DNA of 64,000 nucleotides from a bacterium (GTDB lineage Bacteria; UBA10199; JAIBAG01). The stretch lies in NCBI GenBank assembly GCA_019695305.1, contig JAIBAG010000016.1, positions 1,161 to 65,160 of the forward strand, given 5' to 3'. Of this stretch, positions 15,850 through 34,094 are shown piece by piece (the stretch's first letter is position 1; each line of letters starts with the position of its first letter). The position numbers and the translations under genes were made by a program. The notes under the pieces were generated by a model. The model saw only the letters and a list, made by a program, of their open reading frames with translations, searched no databases and was not told where the DNA came from.

Positions 15850-18174
15850 ATGGATGCTACGGAAGCTATTAATAAGGGAGAAGAAGCCTATCCTTCCTTG
15901 ACCATTTTATCCGGCCCGGATGAGGGCTTGTTTATTGCCCTCACTGGAAAAGAACAAGTTATTGGCCGTTCACGCCGTTCGGCATCCATCCTTTTAGAAG
16001 ATACGTCTGTTTCCCGGGTTCATGCTCGCATTACCAGTAAAGACGGCAATTTTTTTGTGACCGATATGGAAAGTCGCAATGGAGTTGCGCTCAATGGTAA
16101 CCGCATTAAACCTAACAGCGAAACTCCTTTAAAACATCTCGATCAAATTAAAGTGGGCTTGTATATTTTGCGTTTTAATGAGCGCAAACCCACTAGCGAA
16201 GAAGCTGCCAAATCTACCGTTTATTCAGATATTCCATTGCCCAAAAAGAAAGAGAACCCAAGCGCTTTTGACGATATTACCATTTCCGATAAAGTGCCTG
16301 AAGAACCTAAACCTATTGCTCCCGTGCCAGAGGTGGCACCAGAAAGCGTAAAAAAAGAGGAAGAGGTTTTACCGCCCCAAACTGAGGCTGCTACCGAAGC
16401 TAAAGAAGCCGAAGAAATTTTAAATTCATTACCGATTGAAGAAGGCGTTGTAGCCAGTGAAGATGCCGTTAGTTTAGAAGAAGAAAGTTACGGCAAGGGC
16501 ATTCGCAATGTTTTTATTATTATCAGTGTTATTTGTGCGCTTACCGGGTTGGTTTATTTTTTATCACATGGATTTTCACAGAAAAAGAAAGAAAATGTAG
16601 AAGCGCTTGAGACTCCTCCAGAGGTGACTGCCATCAATACGGAGGATGTAGAAAAACATCTAGAAGTGCCGGAGGCTGTGAAACCCGAAGAGCTAAAGGC
16701 GCCTGAAGAAACACAGCCTGCTGCTCAAGAAGCTAATGCTCCTGCGCCCACTATCCAAACGCCACCCGATGTTGTAACGCCGCCAGCAAATACTATTGAA
16801 AACGTTCCTGTAGTTAATTCTCAGCCGCAAGTATTACCTCCCAGTAGCGCCGATGAGCGTACCATGAATTTTATTTTAGATTTACAAACGCAACCCATGC
16901 CTGCGCGCGTTTATTTTAACGATCAAGATTTAGGACAATCGCCCGTAAAGGCGCCGCTTCAATTAAAACCCGGTGTGTCTTACAGTGTGGTTGCTAATTT
17001 TGATTTGCCAGACTTAAACGATCAGTATCAATATCGTGCTTCTTTTACTCCCGATGCGTCAAAAGAAGTGATTACATTAAATGTATCGCCCGATATTGGT
17101 TTGATGAAAGTGATGCTCTTGCCGCGTGATGTAGATTTTTACATGGAAGGATATTACGCCTACGACAAAGAAAAAGCGCATCCGGTAAAACTCACCAACA
17201 TTATTTATGGTAAACCTGTTTATGTTCCGTTTGGACATTATGTGATTGAACTAAAAGAACGCGTTAAAGTAGGTGACACCGATACATATGTAAGTGAAGT
17301 GCGCTATCACAGAGAAATAGATATTAATGCCGATAACCGTACGGTGGAGTTATCGGTGAAGGAACGCGATATCCAGTTTTTTCCGGCACGTATTACATCA
17401 GAACCGAGTGGTGCTCAGGTATTTTTAGATGGGAAACAAGTTGGGAAAACGCCCTATGCAGGAGAATTGCCCTTAGGGCGCCACGATTTAAAATTAACGC
17501 TTGATGGCTATTTTGATAACGACAGCACGCTGGATATGCGTGTGAATAGTCCGTATGAAGCTAAAATTGTGATGAAGACTTCCAAGGTAGGCCAAATGAT
17601 TGCCAAGGCCAAGGAAGAAAAACAAAATGGACAATATCAGGATGCTATCAATAATTTAATTGAGGCTTTAAAAATTGGAGGCAGTGATAAAGAAAAAGCG
17701 GATATCCGCATTTTACTAGGCGACTCGTATTATTTAATGGGGGATTACGATAGGGCTTTTAGTTTTTATGAAGAAATGGCTGCCGAAACCCCTTACCGTT
17801 ACCGGGCTCTTTTGGGAAAAGCCCGTATTCTTAATATTAGAGGGGATAAACAAGGAAGTTTACGTTTACTTTCCGAAATATTTTTAAATTTAACGCCCCA
17901 AGATCCACTTTTAAATGAGGCAGCTAGCCTTTTTAAACAACTCTCTCCTCTTAAATCGGTGATGTATATCACTACCGAACCCAAAGGCGCTACTGTGATG
18001 GTAAACGGACGCGATATGGGTCAAAAAAGCCCTGTTCTCTTATTTGACCTGGGTTTTGGTAATTACCGTATTGAGCTCTCTAAACCCGGTTTTCAAAGTG
18101 CCCAGGTACAAAAAAACCTCAAGGTGAGTGAGTTTGTGCCGGTAGTGGTAAAACTTAAACCCGATAGTTTGTAA
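15850..18174 (+). CDS. FHA-domain membrane protein with periplasmic PEGA domains and TPR repeats
   Basis: 774 aa. N-terminal FHA (VIGRS...ILLEDTSVSRVHARI....FFVTDMESRNGVALNG). TM VFIIISVICALTGLVYFL. Pro/Glu-rich linker. PEGA-like ITSEPSGAQVFLDGKQVGKTPY and ITTEPKGATVMVNGRDMGQ. TPR between them. Confidence 0.8.
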   Translation: MDATEAINKGEEAYPSLTILSGPDEGLFIALTGKEQVIGRSRRSASILLEDTSVSRVHARITSKDGNFFVTDMESRNGVALNGNRIKPNSETPLKHLDQIKVGLYILRFNERKPTSEEAAKSTVYSDIPLPKKKENPSAFDDITISDKVPEEPKPIAPVPEVAPESVKKEEEVLPPQTEAATEAKEAEEILNSLPIEEGVVASEDAVSLEEESYGKGIRNVFIIISVICALTGLVYFLSHGFSQKKKENVEALETPPEVTAINTEDVEKHLEVPEAVKPEELKAPEETQPAAQEANAPAPTIQTPPDVVTPPANTIENVPVVNSQPQVLPPSSADERTMNFILDLQTQPMPARVYFNDQDLGQSPVKAPLQLKPGVSYSVVANFDLPDLNDQYQYRASFTPDASKEVITLNVSPDIGLMKVMLLPRDVDFYMEGYYAYDKEKAHPVKLTNIIYGKPVYVPFGHYVIELKERVKVGDTDTYVSEVRYHREIDINADNRTVELSVKERDIQFFPARITSEPSGAQVFLDGKQVGKTPYAGELPLGRHDLKLTLDGYFDNDSTLDMRVNSPYEAKIVMKTSKVGQMIAKAKEEKQNGQYQDAINNLIEALKIGGSDKEKADIRILLGDSYYLMGDYDRAFSFYEEMAAETPYRYRALLGKARILNIRGDKQGSLRLLSEIFLNLTPQDPLLNEAASLFKQLSPLKSVMYITTEPKGATVMVNGRDMGQKSPVLLFDLGFGNYRIELSKPGFQSAQVQKNLKVSEFVPVVVKLKPDSL

Positions 18175-18220: not shown

Positions 18221-19627
18221 ATGATTCGCACAAAAATTATTTGTACCTCTGGTCCTAGTGTTGACTCCCCTGATAAAATGCAGGCGCTGGTAGAGGCGGG
18301 CATGTCATTAATTCGCATTAACTGTTCACATGGTGCTATTGCCGACAGGCAAAAACAACTGGCTATTATTCGTGGCGTTGAAAAAAAAATGAACATCCCC
18401 ATTGGTATTATGGCCGATTTGCAAGGGCCTAAACTGCGTGTGGCTAAACTTGCGCAGCATCTCGATTTACACCGTGACGAAGTATGGAAATTATCACCAA
18501 GCGAAAAACAAGATCAGGTTAAAAAAGTAATTCCTGTAGATTACAAGCGCATTGCGCAGGCTGTAGTTCCGGGTGATATGCTGTATATGGATGATGGTCT
18601 TATTCAAACGGTTGTAGTTAAAAAAAATAAGGCCGATGTGTGGGTTAAAATTATTCACGGTGGAATTTTGGAAAGCCGCAAAGGCATTAATATCCCCAAC
18701 TTTAAAGCGCATAATCCTATTCTTAACAGTAAAGACAAAGAAGATTTGAAATGGGCCTTAGCGCAAAAACTCGATTTTATTGCTGTGTCGTTTGTGCGTA
18801 CGGTAAAAGATATAAAAGACGTGCGCAAATTTATAGCGCAACATTCAAGCGAACATGTACCTCTTGTAATTGCTAAAATTGAAAAGCCCGAAGCTGTAGA
18901 TAATTTGGACGGTATTATTAAAGAAAGCGATGGTATTTTGGTGGCCAGAGGAGATTTGGGAATTGAGTTGTCGCCCGAGCGTGTGCCGGTAGTGCAAAAG
19001 CAAATTATTGAACAGTGCCGTTTGCTGCAAAAGCCTGTTATTGTGGCAACACAAATGCTGGATAGCATGCGCTACAATCCACGTCCTACACGTGCCGAGG
19101 TGAGTGATGTAGCAAGTTCTATTTATGCCGGTGCCGATGCGGTGATGCTAACCGGCGAAACCTCCAGTGGTAAATATCCTATTAAAGCTACCCAAATGAT
19201 TTCTAAAATTGTTTCCGAGGTAGAAACACACATGGAGCTTAAGAGTTTTTTTAAACGCGCCAGTGATTTTGGTGTTTCTCAATATTGGGATGCCTTTGTA
19301 TTTAATGTGATGACCATGGCGTCGGATATTAAAGCCAAGGCTATAGTTGTGCTGGTAAAAAACGGGCATATCACCAAAATATTATCTAAAATGCATCCCA
19401 AGCAGCCCGTTTATTCTATTGCTCCCAATCCGGCCAGCCATCGCAAGCTTACTTTATTTTGGGGCGTGTATCCGTTAGAGGTATTTCATAGCCATCTTGA
19501 AAAACGTATTGATGGCGGGCTTGCCATTTTGCGTAAAAAGAAAGTGGTTAAAAAAGGCGAGAAACTTATTTTTGTGTACCGCGATTATAAAACCGATAAT
19601 CTTAATTTAAAAGTGATGGAGTGTTAA
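18221..19627 (+). CDS. pyk: Pyruvate kinase
   Basis: 468 aa. MIRTKIICTSGP, IRINCSHG, ADLQGPKLR, VARGDLGIE and MLTGETSSGKYP motifs. Confidence 0.92.
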   Translation: MIRTKIICTSGPSVDSPDKMQALVEAGMSLIRINCSHGAIADRQKQLAIIRGVEKKMNIPIGIMADLQGPKLRVAKLAQHLDLHRDEVWKLSPSEKQDQVKKVIPVDYKRIAQAVVPGDMLYMDDGLIQTVVVKKNKADVWVKIIHGGILESRKGINIPNFKAHNPILNSKDKEDLKWALAQKLDFIAVSFVRTVKDIKDVRKFIAQHSSEHVPLVIAKIEKPEAVDNLDGIIKESDGILVARGDLGIELSPERVPVVQKQIIEQCRLLQKPVIVATQMLDSMRYNPRPTRAEVSDVASSIYAGADAVMLTGETSSGKYPIKATQMISKIVSEVETHMELKSFFKRASDFGVSQYWDAFVFNVMTMASDIKAKAIVVLVKNGHITKILSKMHPKQPVYSIAPNPASHRKLTLFWGVYPLEVFHSHLEKRIDGGLAILRKKKVVKKGEKLIFVYRDYKTDNLNLKVMEC

Positions 19628-20094: not shown

Positions 20095-20631
20095 ATGGCA
20101 AATACTCAACCGATTGAAACCAACTATGTAGATATGACGGGTGCTACAACTACGGCCCAGCAACGTGCGGTTTCGGGAACCAATTTTTACGATACCATGA
20201 ACCAGCTGATGTACTACGCCGGTCCTACAGCCGCTCAAACGGCTGCTTATACGGGTCATGATGTAGTGTCGGCTGCCATCACGGCTTCGGCCGGTGGCTA
20301 CGGCGGTGGTTATGCCGGTTACCCCGGGATGTCTACCGGCGGTATGGGTTATACGGGTTATCCTTCGGCTTCGGTAGGCTTTAACTCGGGCGGTGTGGGT
20401 GCCAGTGTTTCGTACGGTGGGTCATCTAGTGCTGTTTCACGCAGTACGGGCACTTCTGATACCATGAGCTTAGTGAGTGATCAATTATACCAAGGCCAAG
20501 TACAAAACATGGAGATGTTGGTACTTCAAAACCAGGTAGCCGATGTAAACCGTACCTGGCAAATTGCCTCTACCGTAAGCGCCAATAGCGAACAAACCAA
20601 AATGGCGATGGTAAGAAATATGAGAGGTTAA
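20095..20631 (+). CDS. Needle-filament (SctF)-like protein with long Gly/Tyr/Ser-rich N-terminal extension
   Basis: 178 aa. The C-terminal ~45 aa (LVLQNQVADVNRTWQIASTVSANSEQTKMAMVRNMRG) follows the SctF pattern (..LQ..(I/V)N+W..I.ST+....+..I+QNFR). AAGGAG RBS. Strong terminator after it. It sits at the fliE/sctF position before a TPR chaperone and sctJ. Confidence 0.5.
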   Translation: MANTQPIETNYVDMTGATTTAQQRAVSGTNFYDTMNQLMYYAGPTAAQTAAYTGHDVVSAAITASAGGYGGGYAGYPGMSTGGMGYTGYPSASVGFNSGGVGASVSYGGSSSAVSRSTGTSDTMSLVSDQLYQGQVQNMEMLVLQNQVADVNRTWQIASTVSANSEQTKMAMVRNMRG

Positions 20632-20757: not shown

Positions 20758-21192
20758 ATGATTGATGTTCCGCGTGATGATTTGGTGTTGATGATGGAAG
20801 CCGGTTATATTTATCTGGCCATGGGCAAGCTTTCTGAAGCGCGCCAGGTATTTGAAGGCATTTCAGTATTAGCGCCTCAAAACGAAATTCCACTTGTGGC
20901 TATTTCCAACGTTTATTTTGCTCAAAAAAAATATTTGCAGGCTATCCGTACCTTAAAAGAAGCTGTGGAACTTAATCCCAAAAGTGCCTTTGCCAAATCG
21001 CATTTGGGTGAAGCCTATTTGTTTTACGGTAAAAAAGATGAAGCTATTGAAACATTAAATGAGGCTTCCAAGCTAGACCCCAGTGGCAAGCCGGGTGATT
21101 TTGCCCGCTCGCTTTTAGAACTGATCAAAACGGGTTATGACCCTGTGGCGCTTACCAAGCAAGCCAAAGAAATGAAAAAAGGTGCCAAATGA
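20758..21192 (+). CDS. TPR-type T3SS chaperone
   Basis: 144 aa, all TPR. Lies between the needle-like gene and sctJ, the position of yscG-type needle chaperones. Overlaps the sctJ start by 4 nt. Confidence 0.6.
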   Translation: MIDVPRDDLVLMMEAGYIYLAMGKLSEARQVFEGISVLAPQNEIPLVAISNVYFAQKKYLQAIRTLKEAVELNPKSAFAKSHLGEAYLFYGKKDEAIETLNEASKLDPSGKPGDFARSLLELIKTGYDPVALTKQAKEMKKGAK

Positions 21193-22079
21193 CAACACGT
21201 CTTCTCTCTTGCTTAGCTGTTCTTCTTTTTATAGCTGCTTGTAACGAGCAGGTTACCTTAGTGCAGGATCTCGATCAAAAAAATACCAATGCTATTTTGT
21301 TTGTGCTGGCTAAAAATGGCATTAGCGCCCAAAAACAAGTGGTAGAAAAACAGCAGGAAAAAAGTTGGGTGGTAACGGTTGCCTCTGGCGATGAAGTGCG
21401 TGCACGTGAAATTTTGATGATGAACCAGCTTCCCAAGGAGCGCCAGCTGGGGCTTTCCGGGGTTTGTAAGGATGCGGGTTTAATTCCTACTCCTAAAACC
21501 GAAAAGTGTCGCGAGTTGCTGGCATTAAAAGGTGAAATTATTAACTCACTTGAATCTATTCAGGGAGTGGTGAGTGCCGATGTAGTATTAAACGTTCCCG
21601 AAAAAGAAGATTTCCCTGACGAAAATGCGCCACCTAAAAGGCCTACAGCTTCAGTGGTGATAGAGGTATCGGCGGAGTTTGGCAAAAATATTACCGAATC
21701 GAAGGTGCAGCAATTTGTGGCCAATGCGGTAACTGGCATGGATGTAAGAGATGTGGCTGTTATCATCAGTATGCCCGGGCAAAAGAAAGATACACCCACT
21801 GACACAACGGCTCAAATTGAAACTGGTGATAAAGTATCTCCCGAAAATGAAGATGTAGTTCAAAGCGCCGATATGACTTCGGTGGGGGGCTTATCCATGG
21901 ATGAAGCTTCGGCCAAAAAATTTAAAATTATTGCTGTTTTCTTTTTGTTTGTGTTTGTCCTGCTTTCCGCAGGCCTCATTGCTGTTCTTTTCCAAATGGC
22001 TCGTTTAAGACAAAAAAATGAAAAGCCTATGAATACCTTGCCCGAGCCGGTGGCTAACAGGGATGTGGTAAATACATAA
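21189..22079 (+). CDS. sctJ: T3SS inner-membrane ring lipoprotein SctJ (YscJ/PrgK/HrcJ family)
   Basis: 296 aa. Lipobox LLFIAAC. YscJ/FliF-family N-terminal pattern (L..DLDQK.TNAILFVLAKNGISAQK, EVRAREILMMNQLPKE). C-terminal TM FFLFVFVLLSAGLIAVLF. Confidence 0.8.
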   Translation: MTTRLLSCLAVLLFIAACNEQVTLVQDLDQKNTNAILFVLAKNGISAQKQVVEKQQEKSWVVTVASGDEVRAREILMMNQLPKERQLGLSGVCKDAGLIPTPKTEKCRELLALKGEIINSLESIQGVVSADVVLNVPEKEDFPDENAPPKRPTASVVIEVSAEFGKNITESKVQQFVANAVTGMDVRDVAVIISMPGQKKDTPTDTTAQIETGDKVSPENEDVVQSADMTSVGGLSMDEASAKKFKIIAVFFLFVFVLLSAGLIAVLFQMARLRQKNEKPMNTLPEPVANRDVVNT

Positions 22080-22999: not shown

Positions 23000-23830
23000 A
23001 TGGTCATGCAAAAGCAAAAGAAGGTGGAAAAAGTGGCGAAAGAGGCAAAACAGCCTGTAGCACCAGCTCCTCAAAAAGCACCTGCTGTTAAAGGGCCGGC
23101 TGAGGACTTAATTGAAAAGTACATTCCTTTTGCGTCTTCTATTGCTAATAAAATTGCGCGCTCGCTTTCATCGGATGCTGATTACGATGATATTTTGTGT
23201 AATGCCCGTTTGGGCTTACTGGAAGCTGCCCGCCGTTTTGATGACCGTTTCAATGTAGATTTTAAAACATTTGCCTACTACCGTATTAAAGGCGCTATTT
23301 ATGACGGTTTGCGTAAAACGGGCTGGATTCCTCGTTCCATCTATACCAAATTTAAAATGGAACAAGCCGCCAATGAATATTTTAAAGGTGTTACCGAACG
23401 CATTATGGATTCGGCCGATTCCATTAAAAGTGATTTGGACATGTTAAGTGATAAAGTAAGCCAGATGGCTTCTGTGTATGTGATGTCGCTTGATAACATG
23501 GAAGAATATGAAGTGGAAGATAAGTCGGCTAAGCGCGATATTGAGCATAAGGCCGAGTTCCAGAAAATTAAGGAAAAAATGCGGGATGCTATTGAAGGCT
23601 TGCCCGAGAAAGAACGTAAGCTTGTAAAAATGTATTATTTCCAAAACAAGACTTTGCAGGAAATTGGAGAACGTTTAAACTTATCTAAGTCGTGGACCTC
23701 GCGTTTGCACGCCCGCTCGCTGGATTTGCTGATGAAAAAGCTGTCTGGCATTGGTGGCGATATGACGCTGGGTGAAGATTTTACGTTTGATGAAGCCGAT
23801 GTTTCGGCTGATTTAGGAGTAAGAGCGTAA
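23000..23830 (+). CDS. fliA: RNA polymerase sigma factor, FliA/WhiG (sigma-28) family
   Basis: 276 aa. Region 2 (DYDDILCNARLGLLEAARRFD...FKTFAYYRIKGAIYDGLRK). Region 4 (LPEKERKLVKMYYFQNKTLQEIGERLNLSKSWTSRLHARSL). Confidence 0.8.
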   Translation: MVMQKQKKVEKVAKEAKQPVAPAPQKAPAVKGPAEDLIEKYIPFASSIANKIARSLSSDADYDDILCNARLGLLEAARRFDDRFNVDFKTFAYYRIKGAIYDGLRKTGWIPRSIYTKFKMEQAANEYFKGVTERIMDSADSIKSDLDMLSDKVSQMASVYVMSLDNMEEYEVEDKSAKRDIEHKAEFQKIKEKMRDAIEGLPEKERKLVKMYYFQNKTLQEIGERLNLSKSWTSRLHARSLDLLMKKLSGIGGDMTLGEDFTFDEADVSADLGVRA

Positions 23831-23836
23831 AAAATT

Positions 23837-24307
23837 ATGGATCCTATTGTTGCCAAACTGAATGATGCCTTAAATAAAAAGGTTCAAGAGTCGATTAAGC
23901 CTCAGGGCGAAGGTGTATCGTTTCAAAACACCCTAGACGACAAAATCACCTCCCGTTTTATCGATCGTTTAAAAGACGATGCCAAAATTGATGTTGGTCA
24001 AAACATGTCTATTGTGTCGGCTGATGATATTAAAATTGAAACAACCAACCCAGAGCTGGATACCAATAAAATCTTTTCGGCATCCGATCAGATGGAAAAT
24101 ATGTTCAAAGAAATGAACAACGGCTTGTTGGGTATGGATTCGGCCCTTGAAACTATTGCTGCTCCCAATACTAAACTTTCTTATCAAGACTGCTTAAAGC
24201 TTCAAATGTTTACTGCCCATACGGGTTTAATGGCTGAAGCTTTTTCTAAATTTACAGACGGTTTAACTCGCGGTATAACAACCATTCTACAAACTCAGGC
24301 TGGTTAA
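23837..24307 (+). CDS. Hypothetical hydrophilic protein; possible inner-rod SctI-like, or alternatively an anti-sigma factor
   Basis: 156 aa, 6 nt after the sigma gene. The C-terminal helix LKLQMFTAHTGLMAEAFSKFTDGLTRGITTILQTQ loosely resembles SctI/PrgJ C-termini. No firm assignment. Confidence 0.3.
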   Translation: MDPIVAKLNDALNKKVQESIKPQGEGVSFQNTLDDKITSRFIDRLKDDAKIDVGQNMSIVSADDIKIETTNPELDTNKIFSASDQMENMFKEMNNGLLGMDSALETIAAPNTKLSYQDCLKLQMFTAHTGLMAEAFSKFTDGLTRGITTILQTQAG

Positions 24308-24366: not shown

Positions 24367-25299
24367 ATGGCTCTTAGTCTTCGAAAAAAATCATTCATCA
24401 TAATTTCAATGCTGCTTGACGCCGAGGGGACCGAAGCTCTTTTTACTTGTTTTCCTCCTGATCAACAAAATTCTCTTAAAGAAGGTTTATCGTTCTTAAA
24501 ACAAAGTACCAAAAATGGTGATCCCAAGGCTTTGGCTTTAGAGCTTAAAAAAGTACAGGCTTTAAGCCAAAAATCGGTACTGGGTGAAGTTCATCCCGAT
24601 TGGATTATGGAATTGCTCATGAAAGAACCGCCACGTTTGGTGGCGACAGTGCTAAGATATCTTTCCGGTGAGCAGGTTCGGTATATATTAGAGCATTTAC
24701 CCGAAAGTGTGATGGCCAGCCTTCCGCCGTTAGATCAAACCTTTTCTATTCGCACCGAGGTTATTGATATTTTAAAACGAAAATTTGAAAGCTATTTTGA
24801 TTCTTTTATAGAGCGCGAATTGCCAGCCGGTCTAGACCGTTTTGAAACCTTATGTGTGCATTCGTTTCACGACTTGGAGCTTCTTTTTAAAGATATTGGT
24901 TTTAAGGAAATGGCCATGGCCTTTGCTACTCTTAATGAAAAAGCTATCCAGGCCATATTGTCGCGCCTTCCCTTAGAAGATTCCGAAAATCTTAAAATTC
25001 ATATTGCCCAGCGTGGCGATGTAGTATTGGATCGCTTGAAACGGGCACAAAATAATTTGCTGGCCTCCGAAATGAAGCGCTCGGAGTACCTTATTTTAGA
25101 ACTGGGTTTATATGTGTACTCCAAGGCCGTTATGCCCCACCAGGCCGAATACGCAAAAAGGATTGTTTATAAATTTCCGCGTGAAGTGGGAAAGCAGCTT
25201 AAAAAGTATCTGGATCGTAACATGCCGCACAACCAAGATATGGGGGTAAAGCGCTATCAGGGTGAGATTGTTGATAGCTTAAAACGCCTCCAAAATTAG
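24367..25299 (+). CDS. FliG-like protein at the SctK position
   Basis: 310 aa. LMKEPPRLVATVLRYLSGEQVRYILEHLPESV resembles the FliG EHPQTIA..L..L....A..VL..LP segment. HSFHDLELLF..KEMAMAFATLNEKAIQAILSRL.......L......G.V.LDRLKRAQ resembles the FliG C-domain MFVFEDL..KDLALALKGA..ELREKFLSNM........L...G.VRL.DVEEAQ. Immediately upstream of sctL. Confidence 0.6.
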   Translation: MALSLRKKSFIIISMLLDAEGTEALFTCFPPDQQNSLKEGLSFLKQSTKNGDPKALALELKKVQALSQKSVLGEVHPDWIMELLMKEPPRLVATVLRYLSGEQVRYILEHLPESVMASLPPLDQTFSIRTEVIDILKRKFESYFDSFIERELPAGLDRFETLCVHSFHDLELLFKDIGFKEMAMAFATLNEKAIQAILSRLPLEDSENLKIHIAQRGDVVLDRLKRAQNNLLASEMKRSEYLILELGLYVYSKAVMPHQAEYAKRIVYKFPREVGKQLKKYLDRNMPHNQDMGVKRYQGEIVDSLKRLQN

Positions 25300-25336: not shown

Positions 25337-26026
25337 ATGACCGGAAAAATAGTAAAACGCCAAGATGTGAACGAAAAACTCGATATTACCGATCAGGTGC
25401 ATATGGATACGGCCGCAGCTTCTGTATCGGCGGGGCGCAATGTAATTCGCAAGGATGATTTGGAGTCGGTAGGGAAAGCTAATGCTATTATTGATAAAGC
25501 CGTTGCAGAGGCCGCTATTATTAAAAGGCAAGCTAACGATTTATTGGCCAAAGTAGAAGAAGAAATAAAAATTAAAAAAGAACAAGGCTATGAAGAAGGT
25601 AAAAAGGCGGGAGCACGTGAAGTAAGTGAGTTTTTAATAAAAGCCAAACGACATAAAGAAAAAATGTTCCAAGATTTGGAGCCAGATCTCATTAAATTAG
25701 TTTATGACATTTCCGAAAAAATTATTGGTAAAGATTTAAGCGAACGTGAAGGTGCCATCGTCGATTTAATCCGCCAAGCGCTGTCAACTTCACTGGGCCA
25801 AAAAATTGTAGTGGTGGTGCATCCCGCCGATTTACAAGTTGTAAAAGCTAATCAACCGCAGTTGTTGCAGGCTCTTGATGCGACCTGTACCTTACAAATT
25901 CGTGCCGACGAACGCGTAAAACCAAAAGGTTGTTTTATTGAAACTGAAATTGGAACCATTGACGCCGAGCTTGAAACGCAACTCACCATTATTCGTCAAG
26001 CCTTAGGATTGGAACCCAATGCATGA
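25337..26026 (+). CDS. sctL: T3SS stator protein SctL (FliH/YscL family)
   Basis: 229 aa. Coiled-coil N-terminus (EEEIKIKKEQGYEEGKKAG) and a FliH-type C-domain. 4-nt overlap with sctN. Confidence 0.8.
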   Translation: MTGKIVKRQDVNEKLDITDQVHMDTAAASVSAGRNVIRKDDLESVGKANAIIDKAVAEAAIIKRQANDLLAKVEEEIKIKKEQGYEEGKKAGAREVSEFLIKAKRHKEKMFQDLEPDLIKLVYDISEKIIGKDLSEREGAIVDLIRQALSTSLGQKIVVVVHPADLQVVKANQPQLLQALDATCTLQIRADERVKPKGCFIETEIGTIDAELETQLTIIRQALGLEPNA

Positions 26027-27357
26027 CAAGCCCCGACGACATCATCATTGATCTTAAAAAATACCGTACCCGTATTGCCAATTTAAATCCGTATCGTGTG
26101 AAGGGTAAAGTGGTAGAGCTTACCGGACTTGTGGTCAAAGCCATTGTGCCCAATGTGCGCGTAGGAGAGTTATGTCTTATTGAATCACGTCACAAAAATA
26201 AACCTATTAAAGCCGAAGTGGTAGGATTTAAAGACAACACCGTGCTGCTGATGCCGCTGGGTGAGTTGGAAGGTATTGGCCCTGGCAACGATGTTATTCC
26301 TACCGGTAATTGTCTGATGGTACCTGTGGGTAACGAACTGTTAGGACGTATTTTAGACGGTTTGGGCGAACCCATCGATACGGCCCAAAAAGGACCTCTT
26401 AAATGCCGCGAGTATTATCCTGTACACAATAGCCCCCCTGATCCTCTCACACGTAAACGTGTGCTCAAGCCTATTTCGGTAGGAGTAAAAGCTATCGATT
26501 CTATGCTGACAGCTGGTGAAGGTCAGAGAATGGGTTTATTTGCGGCGGCCGGTGTGGGTAAATCAGTTCTAATGGGTATGATTGCGCGCAACACAGAAGC
26601 CGACATTAACGTGATTTGTTTGGTGGGGGAGCGGGGACGAGAATTGCGAGATTTTTTGGAACAAGATTTAGGTGAGGAAGGCTTAAAGCGCTCTATTGTG
26701 GTGTGCTCTACATCCGATCAGCCTTCCCTGGTGCGTTCTAAAGCGGCCTATGTGGCAACGGCTATTGCCGAGTATTATCGCGACCAAGGTAAAAAAGTTT
26801 TATTAATGATGGATTCTGTAACGCGCTTTGCCCGCGCGCTTCGTGAAATTGGTTTGGCTGTGGGGGAACCCCCTGCGCGTCAGGGTTTTACGCCTTCCGT
26901 TTTTTCCACTCTTCCAAAATTGCTCGAACGAGCCGGTAATTCCGATAAAGGATCTATCACCGCTTTTTATACTGTGCTGGTAGAAGGCGACGATATGAAC
27001 GAACCTGTAGCCGATGAAGTGCGTTCTATTTTGGATGGGCACATTATTCTCTCACGTGATTTAGCCAATCGCGGTCAATATCCCGCTATTAACGTTTCGG
27101 AATCCATCAGTCGTGTGATGAGTAATATTGTGGATCAAGAACATTTGGATGCGTCGCGGAAATTAAAAGAAGTGGTAGCGAATTACGAAAAAGAACGTGA
27201 TCTCATTTTAATTGGCGCGTACGAGGCGGGTTCTAACCCGCAGGTGGATTATGCGATTGAGAAGATTGATGAGGTTAATAATTTTTTGAAGCAGGGGATG
27301 TATGATGAGATTGGTTTAGTGGAGGCGGTTGATCTTTTGAAATCTATTTTTGTTTGA
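26023..27357 (+). CDS. sctN: T3SS ATPase SctN (FliI/YscN family)
   Basis: 444 aa. Walker A GLFAAAGVGKSVL. Walker B VLLMMDSVTRFA. Typical EGDDMNEPVADEVRSILDGHI.LSR.LA.RG.YPAI. Confidence 0.95.
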   Translation: MTSPDDIIIDLKKYRTRIANLNPYRVKGKVVELTGLVVKAIVPNVRVGELCLIESRHKNKPIKAEVVGFKDNTVLLMPLGELEGIGPGNDVIPTGNCLMVPVGNELLGRILDGLGEPIDTAQKGPLKCREYYPVHNSPPDPLTRKRVLKPISVGVKAIDSMLTAGEGQRMGLFAAAGVGKSVLMGMIARNTEADINVICLVGERGRELRDFLEQDLGEEGLKRSIVVCSTSDQPSLVRSKAAYVATAIAEYYRDQGKKVLLMMDSVTRFARALREIGLAVGEPPARQGFTPSVFSTLPKLLERAGNSDKGSITAFYTVLVEGDDMNEPVADEVRSILDGHIILSRDLANRGQYPAINVSESISRVMSNIVDQEHLDASRKLKEVVANYEKERDLILIGAYEAGSNPQVDYAIEKIDEVNNFLKQGMYDEIGLVEAVDLLKSIFV

Positions 27358-27458: not shown

Positions 27459-27983
27459 ATGTTTTTTACGATGCCGAAGAAAGAAAAATACAGATTAGAG
27501 CCTCTTTTGAAAGTGAAGGAGAGAGCCAGACGAACCGCAGAGATTGCCTTGGCTAAGGCTATTAAACTTTTAAAGCAAGAACAGGAAAAGCTGGAATTAC
27601 TTAAAGGAAAAAAGACAGAGATTGAAGAAAAGAAAGAGAATACAAAAAGGGACTTACGCTCTAAAGTTTCGGAAGGCGGTTTAAAAATTAGACAAAGTGA
27701 GTTTCATTTTAATTTTATCCGTAAATTAGATGAAGATATTGAAAGCGTGAGCAGAGAAATTAAAGATCAGGAAGATGTGGTGGCAGAGGCGGATAAAAAA
27801 TTAAAAAGAGCGAAACGTGATTACATTGATGCGGCTACAGAGCTAGATGTTATGAAGAAACACAAAGAGTTATGGACCAAGAAATTAACCAAGAAATTAT
27901 CGGATAAAGAAAATAAAGAAATGGGTGAGCTTGGCAATGTTTTGTTTCAAATAACCAAAGGTCGCGAGGGTGCGGCTGGTTAA
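27459..27983 (+). CDS. sctO: T3SS stalk protein SctO (YscO/FliJ-like coiled coil)
   Basis: 174 aa. Highly charged coiled coil (YRLEPLLKVKERARR.AE.AL). Position directly after sctN. Alternative ATG at 27471. Confidence 0.65.
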   Translation: MFFTMPKKEKYRLEPLLKVKERARRTAEIALAKAIKLLKQEQEKLELLKGKKTEIEEKKENTKRDLRSKVSEGGLKIRQSEFHFNFIRKLDEDIESVSREIKDQEDVVAEADKKLKRAKRDYIDAATELDVMKKHKELWTKKLTKKLSDKENKEMGELGNVLFQITKGREGAAG

Positions 27984-27999: not shown

Positions 28000-28878
28000 A
28001 TGTCAATTGATTCAATAGATAATAACTCCGGCGATGATGACCGCCGGGCCGACCGCAAAAAAAGTGAAAATAAGTCGGCCGAAGAACGAAAATCGCTGGA
28101 GCGGGCTGGTCGTGATTTTAAAACGCGTCTTGAAAGCCAGTCGAAATCCCGTGAGATTTTTGAAAAGCAGCAAACTGAAAAATTTGTACAAAAAAATCAG
28201 GAAAATCTTTTAAATAAAATTTTAGAAACCCAACGTAAAAAAGAAGAAAACGCCAAGCAAGACCAGCATGAGCTTGATAAAAAGGAAGATAATAGAAAAG
28301 ACGCTAAAAAAGATGCTCGCCAAGCCTCGCAAAAGAAAAATGCTGACGGTGAAACGCATAAAAGAGTGGAGTCACATACGTCACACCATGGCCAAAGCGA
28401 TGACCAGGAGAGCTCTTCTTTTTCACAGGGCTCTGGTAGTGGCGGTAGTGGTGGCGGAGGGCAGCAGAAAGAATTTTCGGGAGATAAAGATAATAACAAA
28501 GGTGGCCAAGAACAGTTGATGTCGAATGATGAAAAGGGAACCTGGATTGGTCAAAAACAAAAGGTTCAAAAGGCTGAATTTAAATTTGGGGCGGGAAAGA
28601 ATACACGTAATTTTTTAAAGGATGAGGAGATTAGTGAAATTGTACACCAAGTAGTAATTGCCACCTATAGTGATGGTAACAAGGAAGTGGAAATTGTTTT
28701 AAAGGATGATGTGTTTTATGGACTAAAAATGAAATTTGCTCAAGGCGATGACGGTGTAGATGTAACCTTTATTTGCCCTAATTTAACGGTAAAAGGACTT
28801 TTTATTTTAAATAAGGCCAAAATATTTTTTAAACTCCAAGAAAAGGGAATTAAGCTCGGTAAATTTGAAATCATGTAA
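28000..28878 (+). CDS. sctP: T3SS needle-length/substrate-switch protein SctP (FliK/YscP-like)
   Basis: 292 aa. Charged, low-complexity N-terminal two thirds (Gly/Ser tract GSGSGGSGGGGQQ). Globular C-terminal ~90 aa (EIVHQVVIATYSDGNKEVEIVLKDDVFYGLKMKF..DGVDVTF) resembling the FliK/T3S4 C-domain. Position after sctO. Confidence 0.5.
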   Translation: MSIDSIDNNSGDDDRRADRKKSENKSAEERKSLERAGRDFKTRLESQSKSREIFEKQQTEKFVQKNQENLLNKILETQRKKEENAKQDQHELDKKEDNRKDAKKDARQASQKKNADGETHKRVESHTSHHGQSDDQESSSFSQGSGSGGSGGGGQQKEFSGDKDNNKGGQEQLMSNDEKGTWIGQKQKVQKAEFKFGAGKNTRNFLKDEEISEIVHQVVIATYSDGNKEVEIVLKDDVFYGLKMKFAQGDDGVDVTFICPNLTVKGLFILNKAKIFFKLQEKGIKLGKFEIM

Positions 28879-28879
28879 C

Positions 28880-29548
28880 ATGCGTTTTCCTTTACTCTCA
28901 TCTTTTAAAAACTTCACCCCCGCTACCTTGCGTTTTTTTTCACTTTTATCTCTTGTTTTTTTAGCACTTGGTTTTTTTATTATTATTACCTGGCAACTTA
29001 AAAACGGTACCTGGCTTAGAGACTGGGACGAAGTGTTTATCAATTATTTGGTTTCATTAAGACGTGATTCATGGAATGGACCTATGGTTGATATCACGGC
29101 TTTGGGCTCTGTTACCATTGAAGTTGTACTTTGTACGGTTTCTTTTATTTTTTTGTGGCTTGTAAAACGTGAAACGGAAGCCCTGTTTTTGGTTGTCGCT
29201 GTGAGTGGAGCGGGTTTGTTATCACGTTTTTTAAAATTAATGGTAGGTCGAGAACGGCCCTCGGTGCCTCACTTGGTAGAAGTAGTTAATTTTTCTTATC
29301 CCAGCGGCCATGCGCTAACCACAACCGCTCTTTTTTTAGCGCTTGCGCTTCTTGCCTCTCGACATGTTCAAAATACAAGCTCGCGTGTTGTTTTATTTGT
29401 TATGGCTTTTATTTTAATGGGTTTAGTTTCTTTTTCGCGTCTTTATTTGGGAGTTCATTATTTAAGCGATGTATTAAGCGGGGTTTTTTTGGGAATTTCC
29501 TGGACTTTGTTTCTTACTCTTCTCTTTTTTAAAAAAAGAACACTATGA
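28880..29548 (+). CDS. PAP2-family lipid phosphatase
   Basis: About 222 aa from the ATG at 28880, 2 nt after the sctP stop. PAP2 motifs KLMVGRERP, PSGH and SRLYLGVHYLSD. Multiple TMs. Confidence 0.8.
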   Translation: MRFPLLSSFKNFTPATLRFFSLLSLVFLALGFFIIITWQLKNGTWLRDWDEVFINYLVSLRRDSWNGPMVDITALGSVTIEVVLCTVSFIFLWLVKRETEALFLVVAVSGAGLLSRFLKLMVGRERPSVPHLVEVVNFSYPSGHALTTTALFLALALLASRHVQNTSSRVVLFVMAFILMGLVSFSRLYLGVHYLSDVLSGVFLGISWTLFLTLLFFKKRTL

Positions 29549-30031
29549 ATGGGGAAGCCTTGATTCATCAATCATGGCGGGATAGCCTGTGATGCCATAG
29601 AGAGTGGTTTGATAGCCGCTTTTGTTTAATTTTTTGGTAAAGCGTTCTATATCTACAACAGCATTAAATTTTTTTTGTGCTGCTAAAAAAGCTAGTTTTA
29701 AAACCGCGTTTTGTTTGTCTTCGCAATTTTCAATAGTAATTTTACCGTTAGAGCGTTTGATGAGGGGTACTTGTTTATCACCTTTATCAAATAGAAAAAG
29801 ATTTTCTGCCTTTTTAAGAGTAATATTATAAGTTTCTTGAGCCGGTGCCACTGTGCTATCGTAACAAGATCCGCAATAAGTGCTGTGTTTTAAATTGTCG
29901 GGAATAATTTCTAAAAAGGAAAAAGAAGTATTGTCTAAAAACTGCGTGCAGTTTTTGCATAATATATGGTGGCACAAGCTACAGGTGTAGCTTTGTTTTA
30001 AATTAGATTTTAAACAGGAAGAACAAGTCAT
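29543..30031 (-). CDS. Cys-rich (zinc-ribbon-like) protein with YbjQ-like C-terminal region
   Basis: 162 aa. CxxC..CxxC..CxxC and CGSC motifs at the N-terminus. 4-nt overlap with the upstream MFS gene. Confidence 0.5.
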   Translation of the reverse strand: MTCSSCLKSNLKQSYTCSLCHHILCKNCTQFLDNTSFSFLEIIPDNLKHSTYCGSCYDSTVAPAQETYNITLKKAENLFLFDKGDKQVPLIKRSNGKITIENCEDKQNAVLKLAFLAAQKKFNAVVDIERFTKKLNKSGYQTTLYGITGYPAMIDESRLPHS

Positions 30032-31251
30032 TGTATTCTTTCGTAAGTTTTAAGTTCTGGGAAAAAACGAGACCAGGCCCAAACAATGCCCATGGTGGCA
30101 AATCCTCCCAGAACCACCGTAGGAACAGTACCTATAAGACTAGCAACGGCTCCCGATTCAAACTCACCCAATTCGTTAGAGGCACCAATAAACACCAAAT
30201 TAACAGCGCTCACGCGTCCGCGCATTTCTTCTGGAGTTTCCATTTGCACCATAATTCCGCGGATAACTACACTAATCATATCGGCTGCTCCTAAAATAAA
30301 AAGAGCTGAAAGCGACAGGAAGAAATTTTTGGATAAACCAAACACAACTGTAAAGACCCCAAAAATAAATACAGCCTTTAGCATGGTAAGGCCGGTTTTA
30401 TTTTTGATGGGATAATGAGCTAAATAGATAGCCATGAGAGCCGCGCCCACAGACGGAGAAGCGCGTAAAATTCCTAAGCCTTTGGCTCCGACATGTAAAA
30501 TATCGTTCGCATATACGGGTAATAACGCTACGGCTCCTCCAAAAAGAACGGCAAAAAGATCTAAAGAGATAGTCCCCAAGATAATTTTTTTATGAAATAC
30601 AAATCTCACGCCGGCAAGTAATTCATGCCAGCTATGCACTTCTTTGCGTAGCGGGGTTGGGCGTTTGGCAATAGGGTTTATGAGTAAATACGAGAGAAAG
30701 CGCATAGCAGTCACAATAATGAGAACTTCACGTGGACTGGAGGAAAAAGCGTAAATAAAGCCTGCTAAAGCAGGGCCTGCAATAAACGCAAGCTGCATGT
30801 TAGAAGAATTCCAGGCAACAGCATTTCCAAAATGATTTTTGGGAATCATATCGGGTAAAAATGAAAAACTAGCAGGCCCATCAAAAGCATATGCCGCTCC
30901 CAATATAAAGAGAAGAGGGTATACTAGCATGATGGGGAGTTTGCCGGTAAAATATAAAGCGGTCATCAACACCATCACAAAAAACTGAGCCAGGCGAGAG
31001 AGTAAAATGAGCAATCTACGGTCATAAATGTCGGCCAAGTGGCCTGCAGGAACCGTAAAAATAAATTTAGGTAAAAAGAGAGAAAGTCCAAGCCAACCTA
31101 AGTGGAGAGGGTTTTTGGTGACTTGGTAAAGATATTGCGCCATGGCAACAGCCAGCATTTGGTGTGAAGCTAAAGCCAAAAAACGTGCTGCCGAGTAATA
31201 GCGAAAATCGGGATGGCTAAAGGCTATAAAGGGGGATTCATTTCTTTCCAT
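30028..31251 (-). CDS. MFS transporter
   Basis: 407 aa, about 12 TMs. MFS loop motif GHLADIYDRR. Confidence 0.8.
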   Translation of the reverse strand: MERNESPFIAFSHPDFRYYSAARFLALASHQMLAVAMAQYLYQVTKNPLHLGWLGLSLFLPKFIFTVPAGHLADIYDRRLLILLSRLAQFFVMVLMTALYFTGKLPIMLVYPLLFILGAAYAFDGPASFSFLPDMIPKNHFGNAVAWNSSNMQLAFIAGPALAGFIYAFSSSPREVLIIVTAMRFLSYLLINPIAKRPTPLRKEVHSWHELLAGVRFVFHKKIILGTISLDLFAVLFGGAVALLPVYANDILHVGAKGLGILRASPSVGAALMAIYLAHYPIKNKTGLTMLKAVFIFGVFTVVFGLSKNFFLSLSALFILGAADMISVVIRGIMVQMETPEEMRGRVSAVNLVFIGASNELGEFESGAVASLIGTVPTVVLGGFATMGIVWAWSRFFPELKTYERIQ

Positions 31252-31339: not shown

Positions 31340-32278
31340 ATGGCGCTCAAGGCCCAAGTTGAAACATTTCCATTTGATAAATTACCCCGATTCACGCGTG
31401 CAGAATGCGAAGTGGTTTCGTTTATGGCCAAATATTTTCCAGTGTCGTTTGCCGATTCTGCCCTCCTAGATCAGCTGGGGCGTTCTCTTAAAAAATATTT
31501 TGGTGATGCATTTTCAATTAATTTTGAAAATATGGAAGAAATTGCACTCGATAATTTAAACGCAAAAATTGCTGGCAAGTGTGTTGTGGCTGCCGTTTCC
31601 TTGACTCCCTATACCAAAAAGCTTATCATCACCTCCGATTTAGACTTAACAACAGCTATTATCGACAAAGCACTGGGTGGTGGCGGTGAAGTTCCTGAGG
31701 TTCCGGGCGAGTTGACTGCATTAGAAGAGGGCGTTCTCGAATTTGTGGCAGCCAAGGTGTTAAAAGCGCTCAATGGTGTTACGGCTAGTCCTTCACATCG
31801 TTTTATTTTAGAATCGCTTGAAACGCGGCGTTTTAAGTCGGAAGTACTTTATGTGTCTACCGAACGTTTTTATGTTCTGCGATTTTTGGCTGCTGTAAAC
31901 AACGTGTCGGGAATTATTGCTGTTCATATTCCGTTGTCGCTTTTGTTTGAAATGAAAGGACGTAGCGATATTTTTGCAGCTAACGAAAATATGCGCTATC
32001 AAACGCAACGTCTAAAAGATTTTGATAATTTAAGAACGGTGTTGTGGGGTGAGTTGGGGCATGTTTTGTTACACCCTCAAGATTTAAACATTTTAGACCG
32101 TGGTGATGTTGTTTTATTTGATGAAACTGATGCAAGTTTGATGGATGGAAAAGTAAAAGGAACTATTAAACTGCGTTTTGGTGATGGACGTGGAGCCGGT
32201 TTTGAGGCTTTTGTTGAAGCAGATCATACGTCCGATTATCAGGTAAAATTGGGTTCGATGTTATCTAAAGAGGAGTGA
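31340..32278 (+). CDS. sctQ: T3SS sorting-platform protein, SctQ N-terminal-type (FliM/HrcQa-like)
   Basis: 312 aa. LPRFTRAE......., GELTALEEGVLEFVAAKVL pattern typical of SctQ/FliM. Followed by a separate SpoA-domain gene with a GTGA overlap. Confidence 0.6.
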   Translation: MALKAQVETFPFDKLPRFTRAECEVVSFMAKYFPVSFADSALLDQLGRSLKKYFGDAFSINFENMEEIALDNLNAKIAGKCVVAAVSLTPYTKKLIITSDLDLTTAIIDKALGGGGEVPEVPGELTALEEGVLEFVAAKVLKALNGVTASPSHRFILESLETRRFKSEVLYVSTERFYVLRFLAAVNNVSGIIAVHIPLSLLFEMKGRSDIFAANENMRYQTQRLKDFDNLRTVLWGELGHVLLHPQDLNILDRGDVVLFDETDASLMDGKVKGTIKLRFGDGRGAGFEAFVEADHTSDYQVKLGSMLSKEE

Positions 32279-32742
32279 GCGTGGCAAATAAAGATCCTTT
32301 TGATGAAGAATTAATGGCAGAGCTGGGTTTAGAGCCTGGGAAAGCGGCACCTGCTAAAGCTGCGGCTCCCAAGCCACCGGTTACACAACAACGTGCTCCC
32401 ATAACTCCTCCTGCCAGTCAGCCTAAAACAGCTGATCCGGTAACGGGTAAAACACAAATTGTAGAACGTCCCAAGCCAAGTGCGCCTCCTGCATCTCAAG
32501 TAAGCCCTGCCGATAACGAACAAGTGGCTTTGGATATGCCCGTACAGGTAGTGGCAGTATTGGGTAAAAAAACAATTACCTTAAAAGAAATTTTATCTCT
32601 TAAACAGGGCGAGCTTTTTGAACTAAAAAAATTACCTCAAGAACAAATTGATCTTGTTGCTAATGGTAAATTAGTAGCTCGCGGTGATTTGGTGTTAATA
32701 GACGGTAAAATGGGATTGCAGATTAAACAAATTATTAAATAA
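32275..32742 (+). CDS. T3SS SpoA-domain protein (SctQ-C / FliN / HrcQb-like)
   Basis: 155 aa. Pro/Ala-rich N-terminus. C-terminal SpoA domain (VQVVAVLGKKTITLKEILSLKQGELFELKK......DLVANGKLVARGDLVLIDGKMGLQI). Confidence 0.8.
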   Translation: MSVANKDPFDEELMAELGLEPGKAAPAKAAAPKPPVTQQRAPITPPASQPKTADPVTGKTQIVERPKPSAPPASQVSPADNEQVALDMPVQVVAVLGKKTITLKEILSLKQGELFELKKLPQEQIDLVANGKLVARGDLVLIDGKMGLQIKQIIK

Positions 32743-32765: not shown

Positions 32766-33083
32766 ATGATATATTTTTTAGCACAAATTGATTCTGCTGC
32801 CGCTACAACCGAAATGTCGTTTGGGTGGCTACTTGTTAAAACACTCTTGGCTTTGGCTTTTATTTTGGCATTGGCCTTTGTGTTTATTCGTTTTTTGCTT
32901 CCCAAACTTAACTTTGCCCAAAACATTAAGCAAAATGTGCCGGTTAAAATTTTATCGCGCACGGGTTTAGAAGCCCGCAAGGCTTTGTATGTGATTGAAG
33001 TAGGAAAAAAGAAAGCGCTTATTGCTGCTACCGATCACAATGTTACTAAAATTTTTGATTTAAACGACGACGACCTCAAGTAA
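32766..33083 (+). CDS. FliO-like single-pass membrane protein
   Basis: 105 aa. TM (LLVKTLLALAFILALAFVFIRFLL) followed by VKILSRTGLEARKALYVIEVGKKKALIAATDHNVTKI. This parallels E. coli FliO ..LKISASASLGARERVVVVDVEDARLVLGVTAGQINLL. Directly upstream of sctR. Confidence 0.6.
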   Translation: MIYFLAQIDSAAATTEMSFGWLLVKTLLALAFILALAFVFIRFLLPKLNFAQNIKQNVPVKILSRTGLEARKALYVIEVGKKKALIAATDHNVTKIFDLNDDDLK

Positions 33084-33827: not shown

Positions 33828-34094
33828 ATGGAATCGTATACAATTGCTATTAGTAAACAGTCGCTTTATTTGGTGCTCTTGCTTTCGGCGCCTCCTGTGT
33901 TGGCTGCCATGGTGGTGGGGCTACTTGTTAGTTTGGTGCAGGCTACTACGCAAATTCAGGAGCAAACTCTTACTTTTGTTCCTAAAATGGCAACAGTTAT
34001 TGTGGTATTGGCGCTTTTGGGGCCCTTGGGCATGGCCTACATGATTTCATTTACCAAAACTTTGCTAGAAACATTTCCAACGTATATTCATTAA
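33828..34094 (+). CDS. sctS: T3SS export apparatus protein SctS (FliQ family)
   Basis: 88 aa. Two TMs. LVSLVQATTQIQEQTLTFVPK motif. Confidence 0.9.
   Translation: MESYTIAISKQSLYLVLLLSAPPVLAAMVVGLLVSLVQATTQIQEQTLTFVPKMATVIVVLALLGPLGMAYMISFTKTLLETFPTYIH

Follow-up and report, generated by a model that had tools for sequence, protein, structure and literature searches.

A remodelled FliG homologue in the SctK position of a probable Myxococcota-type, non-flagellar type III secretion gene cluster

SctK is the sorting-platform component of type III secretion systems (T3SSs) that textbooks list without a clear flagellar counterpart. In one account, only SctJLNQRSTUV were counted as having clear flagellar homologues (PMC13436205). 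Among the non-flagellar T3SSs, the secretin-less systems of the Myxococcales were found to be basal by Abby and Rocha in 2012 and to lack FliG (PMC3459982). The Myxococcus loci were formerly read as relics (PMC3459982), but the T3SS* of M. xanthus is functional in predation, and a 2023 review lists SctD, SctJ, SctI, SctQ, SctRSTUV, SctN, SctL and LcrH-like chaperones for it, with no SctK or FliG (PMC10433427). The presence of FliO in non-flagellar T3SSs of the Myxococcota was reported in 2025 and is hence already known (PMC12403147). FliG-type sequences outside flagella have been described in chlamydiae, where Bergeron reported a FliF-FliG_M fusion in 2016 (PMC4768692) and where a 2025 preprint using SPfast proposed that a protein encoded between SctJ and SctL is SctK, with structural similarity to both the FliG and the SctK families (10.1101/2025.03.14.643159). 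Here, we describe a gene that encodes a FliG homologue within a non-flagellar T3SS cluster. It lies in a 64,000-nucleotide stretch of contig JAIBAG010000016.1 (assembly GCA_019695305.1, lineage UBA10199), which we refer to as the window.

24367..25299, + strand: FliG-like gene, 310 amino acids (aa), ATG start, TAA-type stop, intact open reading frame (ORF)

The ORF was present as originally predicted, and the homology to FliG that had been proposed for its product by eye was borne out by domain, profile and structure searches. Pfam matches to FliG_C (E=2.1e-7, 31.6 bits against a cut-off of 23.3, aa 159-233) and FliG_M (E=1.1e-6, 29.3 bits against a cut-off of 25, aa 77-117) were above their cut-offs, and the MgtE_N score was marginally under its own. 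A profile built from an alignment of 76 family members (A2) matched T. maritima FliG (1LKV) in the PDB at E=6.2e-16 and also matched the full-length FliG chains of A. aeolicus and Salmonella. Aligned by hhalign with four canonical FliGs (those of E. coli, Acetoanaerobium and Listeria and an IMG FliG), the same profile gave a probability of 98.7% and E=3e-16, with aa 1-248 colinear with residues 2-327 of E. coli FliG. The AlphaFold2 model, built with A2, was predicted with high confidence (predicted local distance difference test [pLDDT] 93.8, predicted TM score [pTM] 0.87), consists of 19 helices and has the FliG fold: the best 13 Foldseek matches in the PDB were all FliG, each with probability 1.0, and FliG_M alone (4FQ0_C) was superimposed with a TM score of 0.78 and a root mean square deviation of 1.8 Å. 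Single-sequence searches, by contrast, were marginal or empty, phmmer giving E~0.03 against the FliG sequences of the PDB and tblastn giving no match in 72,556 PLSDB plasmid records, so the relationship is a distant one, seen at the level of profile and fold. The whole protein scored 25.8 bits against the NCBIfam FliG equivalog TIGR00207 and did not reach its cut-off of 226.7. Sequence, profile and predicted fold thus agree that the 310-aa product is a true FliG homologue. It is a remodelled FliG and not an orthodox one, in that one domain, ARM_C, is gone and the C domain is doubled.

Four domains were delimited in the protein, as follows.

24367..24570, + strand: N' domain, aa 1-68, three helices, first half of FliG_N (hhalign)
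24577..24807, + strand: ARM_M, the FliG middle domain, aa 71-147, with the EHPQ-type motif E87-P88-P89-R90 (hhalign, Foldseek)
24841..25071, + strand: C1 domain, aa 159-235, the FliG C-terminal (torque-helix) domain (hhalign)
25081..25296, + strand: C2 domain, aa 239-310, four helices, absent from canonical FliG (hhalign)

In flagella, the full FliG_N domain binds the C-terminal helices of FliF. The N' segment (aa 1-70) matched FliG_N with a probability of 93.7% (E=1.9e-7), aa 2-57 corresponding to residues 3-57 of E. coli FliG, and in the full-length alignment residues ~58-102 of the E. coli protein, which form the distal part of FliG_N and helix NM, were deleted. The next segment (aa 71-150) matched FliG_M (97.2%, E=4.5e-11), and C1 (aa 151-237) matched FliG_C (96.8%, E=2.6e-10). 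Between them lies a deletion of ~40 residues, equivalent to residues ~189-228 of E. coli FliG, that is, ARM_C, and no segment of the family matched ARM_C in the domain-by-domain hhalign comparison (probability <5%). The flagellar ARM_C stacks on the ARM_M of the adjacent subunit and thereby polymerises the FliG ring. The C2 domain (aa 238-310) matched C1 with a probability of 97.0% (E=8e-11) and FliG_C with 57%; it is therefore a tandem duplicate of the C domain. Nearly all of the family matches listed cover the profile up to positions ~305-313 and so extend through C2.

Two functional surfaces of flagellar FliG fared differently in this protein. In flagella, FliM binds ARM_M at the EHPQ motif, and among the 76 aligned members the first and third positions of this motif are kept (E87 in 97%, P89 in 92%), whereas the H, Q and R positions lack conservation. 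Both residues belong to the near-invariant set of the family, together with W79, P100, G178, A227 and G247. The five charged torque-helix residues, whose conservation the original prediction had proposed to check, contact the stator protein MotA in flagella; all five are replaced in the hhalign mapping (K264 by A187, R281 by E204, D288 by I211, D289 by H212 and R297 by V220, E. coli residues first), and their columns are variable across the 76 members. The peptides on which that prediction was based were found at aa 86-115 (KEPPRLVATVLRYLSGEQVRYILEHLPESV) and aa 165-228 (HSFHDLELLF...MAMAFATLNEKAIQAILSRL...GDVVLDRLKRAQ). Its pairings of EHPQ with EPPR, of ALALKG with AMAFAT and of G.V.L...AQ with GDVVLDRLKRAQ stood, but the pairing of the MFxF hinge with HSFHD was off by ~8 residues: the hinge aligns with D157-R-F159-E160, and HSFHD (aa 165-169) corresponds to 'LDDRS' of FliG.

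The protein belongs to a large family. An exhaustive profile search of 1.84 billion representatives (50% identity clusters) returned 503 representatives at E<=1e-3 and 193 at E<=1e-10, and the best 150 of the 503 were mostly 300-360 aa long and matched the profile over most of their length. A word-indexed protein search found only three relatives with the single sequence and five with the profile. Pfam recognised FliG_M in 70, FliG_C in 68 and MgtE_N in 65 of the 76 aligned members. The members that were looked up came from metagenomes or metagenome-assembled genomes (MAGs) and were mostly annotated as 'hypothetical protein', with one IMG entry named FliG; those with a named source were MAG proteins of Deltaproteobacteria, Myxococcales and Ca. 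Schekmanbacteria. Cluster look-ups for cultured carriers found only MAG entries named 'hypothetical protein'.

All of the loci with enough flanking sequence around a family member were T3SS loci. One of them, from a groundwater 'Deltaproteobacteria bacterium' MAG (L001), is syntenic with the window over the entire cluster, and the nearest relatives of the window are MAGs under that name. Two metagenomic loci (L005 and L015) carry the same operon, in the order sigma factor, SctI-like, FliG-like, SctL, SctN, SctO, an unassigned gene, FliM-like, FliN, FliO, FliP, FliQ and FliR. In the window, L001, L003, L005 and L015, the FliG-like gene immediately precedes that for SctL. It directly follows sctJ in L004 and L013, one of which is a Myxococcales MAG, and is separated from sctJ by three genes in the window. 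The gene for YscK sits between yscJ and yscL, and the proposal that the window gene occupies the SctK slot, directly upstream of SctL/FliH, SctN and SctO, therefore agrees with both neighbourhoods. From the FliG-like gene onward, the order also is that of E. coli fliG-H-I-J-K ... fliM-N-O-P-Q-R; since the cluster keeps the flagellar order, the SctK slot is the ancestral FliG slot too. The window and the related loci were 79-82% identical in SctN and 62-65% identical in SctR, compared with 23-36% in the FliG-like protein and 23-31% in the FliM-like protein, which indicates that the adaptor layer evolves fast.

The genes surrounding the FliG-like gene are listed below with the evidence for each assignment.

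15850..18174, + strand: FHA, single-transmembrane, PEGA/TPR protein, 774 aa, candidate SctD-like ring or anchor protein (Pfam, synteny)
18221-19627: pyruvate kinase, inserted relative to L001, between the FHA protein and small ORFs
20758..21192, + strand: TPR chaperone, LcrH/SycD-like (Pfam TPR, weak HrpB1_HrpK)
21189..22079, + strand: SctJ-type inner-membrane ring lipoprotein, 296 aa (Pfam YscJ_FliF)
23000..23830, + strand: FliA/WhiG-family (sigma-28-like) sigma factor (Pfam Sigma70_r2, r4)
23837..24307, + strand: SctI/SctF-like small rod or needle-family protein, 156 aa (homology to an L005 protein)
25337..26026, + strand: SctL/FliH stator-like protein (Pfam FliH 77 bits, T3SS_SCTL 39.6 bits)
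26023..27357, + strand: SctN/FliI ATPase (NCBIfam)
27459..27983, + strand: SctO/FliJ stalk protein (Pfam YscO-like 80.3 bits, NCBIfam FliJ 42.9 bits)
28000..28878, + strand: 292-aa protein in the FliK/SctP slot, function from position only (syntenic homologues in L001 and L005)
28865-31251: PAP2 phosphatase (+ strand), 162-aa ORF (- strand) and MFS transporter (- strand), inserted relative to L001
31340..32278, + strand: FliM-like protein, 312 aa (Pfam FliM 26.5 bits against a cut-off of 27, NCBIfam fliM E=2.4e-7)
32275..32742, + strand: FliN / SctQ-C (SPOA) protein (Pfam FliMN_C 71.5 bits)
32766..33083, + strand: FliO (Pfam FliO 32.6 bits against a cut-off of 22, NCBIfam FliO E=4e-10)
33089-33826, + strand: export gate protein SctR/FliP (Pfam FliP)
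33828-34094, + strand: export gate protein SctS/FliQ (Pfam Bac_export_3)
34108-34938, + strand: export gate protein SctT/FliR (Pfam Bac_export_1)
38218-39735, - strand: FHA-domain sigma54 activator
39641-41746, - strand: Ser/Thr kinase with three PEGA domains

The membrane ring of this system is of the SctJ type. The ring protein scored 133.7 bits against the NCBIfam SctJ model and 25.5 bits against FliF, and it has a lipobox, a C-terminal transmembrane segment and a 25-aa tail; a FliF-type FliG-binding motif was sought in this tail and not found, and the tail is not conserved with L001. A 160-aa membrane protein is encoded after sctJ. The 774-aa protein carries FHA and Yop-YscD_cpl matches in its N-terminal part and PEGA and TPR matches in its C-terminal part, with a transmembrane segment at ~216-240, and has a syntenic orthologue in L001 (43% identity). 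From these domains it is tentatively assigned as an SctD-like outer inner-membrane-ring or anchor protein. Two small ORFs without assignment lie between pyruvate kinase and the TPR chaperone, which itself scored under the cut-offs of NCBIfam LcrH_SycD, CdsG and SctY. In the same interval we noted a conserved cluster protein rich in Gly, Ser and Thr (20095-20631, + strand, 178 aa) with a helical, heptad-like C terminus and no family match, possibly an exported axial or substrate protein.

The sigma factor was under the NCBIfam FliA_WhiG cut-off at 139.8 bits. It shares 56-66% identity with its counterparts in L001, L002, L005 and L015 and occupies the same position in L001, L005 and L015; embedded in the cluster, it is another retained flagellar regulatory feature. 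The SctI/SctF-like protein is 33% identical (E=1e-16) to a 166-aa protein of L005, which in turn scored 27.3 bits against T3SS_basalb_I (cut-off 32.4) and has a precomputed T3SS_needle_F match. The SctL/FliH protein had HrpE/YscL as its best NCBIfam match. The ATPase passed both NCBIfam equivalogs (FliI_clade2, 639.3 against 629.8; SctN, 620.1 against 604.75) and was about equally similar to clostridial FliI (60%) and Desulfovibrio SctN (58%). The 292-aa protein matched no family in the Pfam and NCBIfam scans; it is of low complexity, and its C-terminal ~90 aa resemble by eye the FliK/SctP switch domain. The insertion of PAP2, the 162-aa ORF and MFS separates its gene from that of the FliM-like protein. 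The latter lacks the CheY-binding N terminus (the LSQAEIDALL segment is absent), and its GGXG site reads 'GGGG' in the window, is partly kept in L001 and has disappeared from L005 and L015. BLASTP of this protein against E. coli FliM returned nothing, so the FliM assignment is supported by profile matches only. The FliN/SctQ-C protein was under the cut-offs of both NCBIfam SpaO_YscQ and fliN, and the export gate proteins passed the yscR and SctS cut-offs with fliP and fliQ scores marginally under theirs. Across these scores, the components of the cluster appear intermediate between flagellar and non-flagellar types. With FliM-like, FliN and FliO encoded by separate genes and a sigma factor of the FliA type, the host system departs from the textbook injectisome.

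TPR-rich genes follow the gate genes, and in the window (34938-38137), L005 and L015 the end of the operon after SctT consists of unknown and TPR proteins or of housekeeping genes. SctU/FlhB and SctV/FlhA were absent after SctT in the window and in every related locus that extends past SctT; these two essential gate proteins would have to be encoded elsewhere. The window as a whole encodes no MotAB, rod, hook, flagellin, FlhA/SctV, FlhB/SctU, secretin or translocon protein, and neither it nor L001, L004, L005, L013 and L015 contained fliF, motAB or axial flagellar genes. Hence, the system looks motor-less, as had been supposed, with no stator, rod, hook or filament genes in 64 kb and with the five torque charges replaced. 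Kinase-PEGA genes adjoin the clusters also in L005 and L013, and together the FHA-sigma54 activator, the PEGA kinase and the FHA-PEGA SctD-like protein suggest that phosphothreonine/FHA signalling may control the secretion system. Two further ORFs lie farther upstream. One (128-6679, + strand), ~9 kb upstream of the T3SS cluster, encodes 2183 aa with no Pfam match at E<=0.001 and could be a large secreted or surface protein. The other (7567-8541, + strand, 324 aa) has an IS200-like Y1 transposase domain and a C-terminal, sub-threshold helix-turn-helix of the sigma70 region-4 type.

The original prediction contrasted the protein with canonical SctK, said to show no similarity to FliG, and this contrast was upheld: a YscK profile matched FliG with a probability of 0.2%, and an AlphaFold2 model of YscK (pLDDT 75) matched only PscK in Foldseek, at a TM score of ~0.8, with no FliG at E<=10. 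For the FliG-like family, the hhalign probability was 0.4% against the single YscK sequence and 2% (E=0.022, not significant) against a profile of 11 YscK sequences; no SctK-family Pfam match was found at E<=1 in the 76 members; and PscK (6UIE), which is in the PDB library searched, was outside the top 50 Foldseek matches of the FliG-like model. The YscK alignment was shallow (effective number of sequences [Neff] 1.9), so the negative outcome is weak. By sequence and fold, the window protein is FliG-type and not SctK-type. The D. vulgaris plasmid injectisome has in its SctK slot a 307-aa protein, which was tried as a family member for its similar length and rejected (probability 0.2%); it gave a weak YscK match instead.

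Several observations, none of them significant alone, are consistent with the family being an intermediate between FliG and SctK that has survived. Flagella, the FliG-like system and injectisomes all have the gene in the same slot; divergence is fast, at 23-36% identity for the FliG-like protein where SctN is at ~80%; YscK 7-204 aligns colinearly, without significance, with aa 92-305, P100, G178 and G247 pairing with conserved YscK residues; and in single comparisons the YscK profile gave a better E value against the FliG-like family (0.022) than against canonical FliG (0.38). The chlamydial SctK-slot protein resembling both families (10.1101/2025.03.14.643159) is a further lead of this kind. 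SctK might then descend from a FliG in which ARM_C and the torque charges were lost before divergence hid the relationship, a scenario that we regard as possible but somewhat less probable than not. If it is true, the earliest non-flagellar T3SSs would have kept a cytoplasmic assembly of FliG, FliM and FliN, and the loss of ARM_C would be the molecular step from a continuous C-ring to discrete pods.

We consider it likely that the gene encodes a FliG-derived, static adaptor between ring and platform in a non-flagellar T3SS of the Myxococcota type, needle-less or secretin-less in style. The homology, deletions, duplication, residue changes and synteny described above are observations; the contacts that we infer for the protein are as follows. 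ARM_M, with its conserved E..P surface, would bind the neighbouring FliM-like protein at the latter's middle domain, and the conservation of the EHPQ-type motif, together with the GGGG site of the window FliM-like protein, is consistent with a retained FliM interface. The FliM-like protein and FliN would hold SctL and the SctN ATPase, while the N' and/or C2 domains would tie the platform to the membrane ring. SctK binds the FHA domain of SctD as well as SctQ's N-terminal domain. The FliG-like protein would probably be attached in the same way, through the cytoplasmic FHA domain of the 774-aa SctD-like protein and not through the SctJ tail; the FHA domain is favoured because the tail is short, poorly conserved and without a FliF motif. 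Loss of ARM_C removes the ARM_M-ARM_C stacking between subunits that builds the flagellar FliG ring, and loss of the torque charges, with stator genes absent, removes rotation. The protein would thus do the job of SctK as a static adaptor from ring to sorting platform, without torque or switching.

Several points weigh against this assignment of a static adaptor. The partners proposed for both ends of the protein are putative, and the SctD label of one of them is tentative because the 774-aa FHA protein has PEGA and TPR domains instead of SctD-type periplasmic domains. With the GGXG site lost from the FliM-like proteins of L005 and L015, the classical contact between EHPQ and GGXG may hold for only some members. 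The 64-kb window contains no SctU, SctV or secretin gene, which limits the view of how complete the machine is, and a flagellum could be encoded in another part of the source genome. The SctK-like function would follow from position and logic, the protein having no detectable similarity to SctK.

The features shared with flagella might instead mean that the protein is the rotor or switch protein of a genuine, divergent flagellum in which it still helps to generate torque. The homology to FliG over N, M and C, the flagellar gene order with FliM, FliN, FliO and a FliA-type sigma factor and the ATPase score above the FliI_clade2 cut-off would all fit. Against these stand the 25.8 bits obtained where the FliG equivalog demands 226.7, the loss of ARM_C and of the five torque charges at positions that the family does not conserve, a ring protein that is an SctJ-type lipoprotein and not FliF, and a FliM-like protein without the CheY-binding peptide. 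The cluster also contains SctI-like, YscO-like and FHA proteins and LcrH-like TPR chaperones, and Mot, Flg and flagellin genes are absent from the window and six related loci, so we regard a working flagellar rotor as very unlikely. An equally slight chance is given to a decaying flagellar or T3SS relic in which the FliG-like ORF has no function. Missing SctU, SctV and secretin genes and the insertion of unrelated genes (pyruvate kinase; PAP2, a small ORF and MFS) are what decay would leave, and the Myxococcus T3SS loci were once so read (PMC3459982). However, all of the ORFs in the cluster are intact, and synteny of ~20 genes persists in MAGs in which identity is only 23-36% for the FliG-like protein and 79-82% for SctN. 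The family comprises hundreds of clusters, the best 150 of those listed being mostly full-length, with near-invariant residues among the 76 aligned; the AlphaFold2 model is very confident; and the T3SS* of M. xanthus, a related system, has a functional role in predation (PMC10433427).

A soluble regulator or chaperone with the FliG/MgtE_N helical repeat fold, controlling for example the FliA-type sigma factor or the ATPase and not serving as a structural adaptor, is improbable too, if less so than the rotor or the relic. The MgtE_N fold serves sensing elsewhere and is matched in 65 of the 76 members, the gene follows that of the sigma factor, the model is compact (pTM 0.87), unlike the extended FliG, and ARM_C, the polymerisation element, is absent. 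Conservation of E..P in the FliM-binding motif, the constant pairing with SctL/SctN or SctJ and the lack of an adjacent sigma factor in L004 and L013 argue against it, and the co-occurrence of FliM-like and FliN proteins fits a platform component better.

The protein represents a FliG-derived family that is widespread, has gone unannotated and is built into T3SS loci of the non-flagellar kind. We found no prior description of it in the full-text literature searched, from which subscription journals are mostly missing, so an earlier account is possible. Because a remodelled FliG occupies the slot of an unrelated-looking adaptor, it bears on the evolution of T3SSs from flagella and is a candidate for how the flagellar C-ring became a non-rotating secretion platform, with the FliM motif kept and ARM_C and the stator charges lost. 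If the family is unrelated to SctK, it still is a new FliG architecture with a non-motor role.

Compared with flagellar FliG (1LKV; Salmonella C-ring, 8UMD/9N49), the protein has colinear N, M and C domains, the same fold, the E..P of EHPQ and a gene position upstream of fliH-fliI-fliJ. It differs in lacking ARM_C, the second half of FliG_N, the torque charges and any similarity at the level of BLAST, in having an extra C domain and in being paired with SctJ and not FliF as its ring protein. With SctK (YscK/PscK, PF06578, PDB 6UIE; OrgA/MxiK; EscK; HrpB4), it shares the gene position between sctJ and sctL, an all-helical, cytoplasmic nature with a presumed role in linking the ring to SctQ/FliM-N, and fast evolution relative to the core genes, but it is 310 aa long as opposed to ~210 aa. 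In the chlamydial cases, FliG-type domains were already known from bacteria that have a T3SS but no flagella; unlike the chlamydial fusion, which holds FliG_M only, the FliG-like protein comes from another lineage and has another architecture. In gene content, the window cluster resembles the Myxococcota T3SSs of the 'Myxo' group, including T3SS* (PMC3459982, PMC10433427, PMC12403147): SctJ, an SctI-like protein, an FHA ring-type protein, LcrH-like chaperones and FliO are shared, secretin, needle-tip and translocon genes are likewise missing (as far as the window goes), and members of the FliG-like family occur in Myxococcales MAGs. The window cluster differs from that of M. xanthus in lacking SctU and SctV. 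It also differs from the published Myxo systems, which are stated to lack FliG and for which no SctK is listed, in having the FliG-like protein, and this contradicts, at least for the lineage of the window, the published statement that the basal systems lack FliG. What the locus holds is a new FliG architecture, composed of an N-half, M, C and C', inside a known kind of system.

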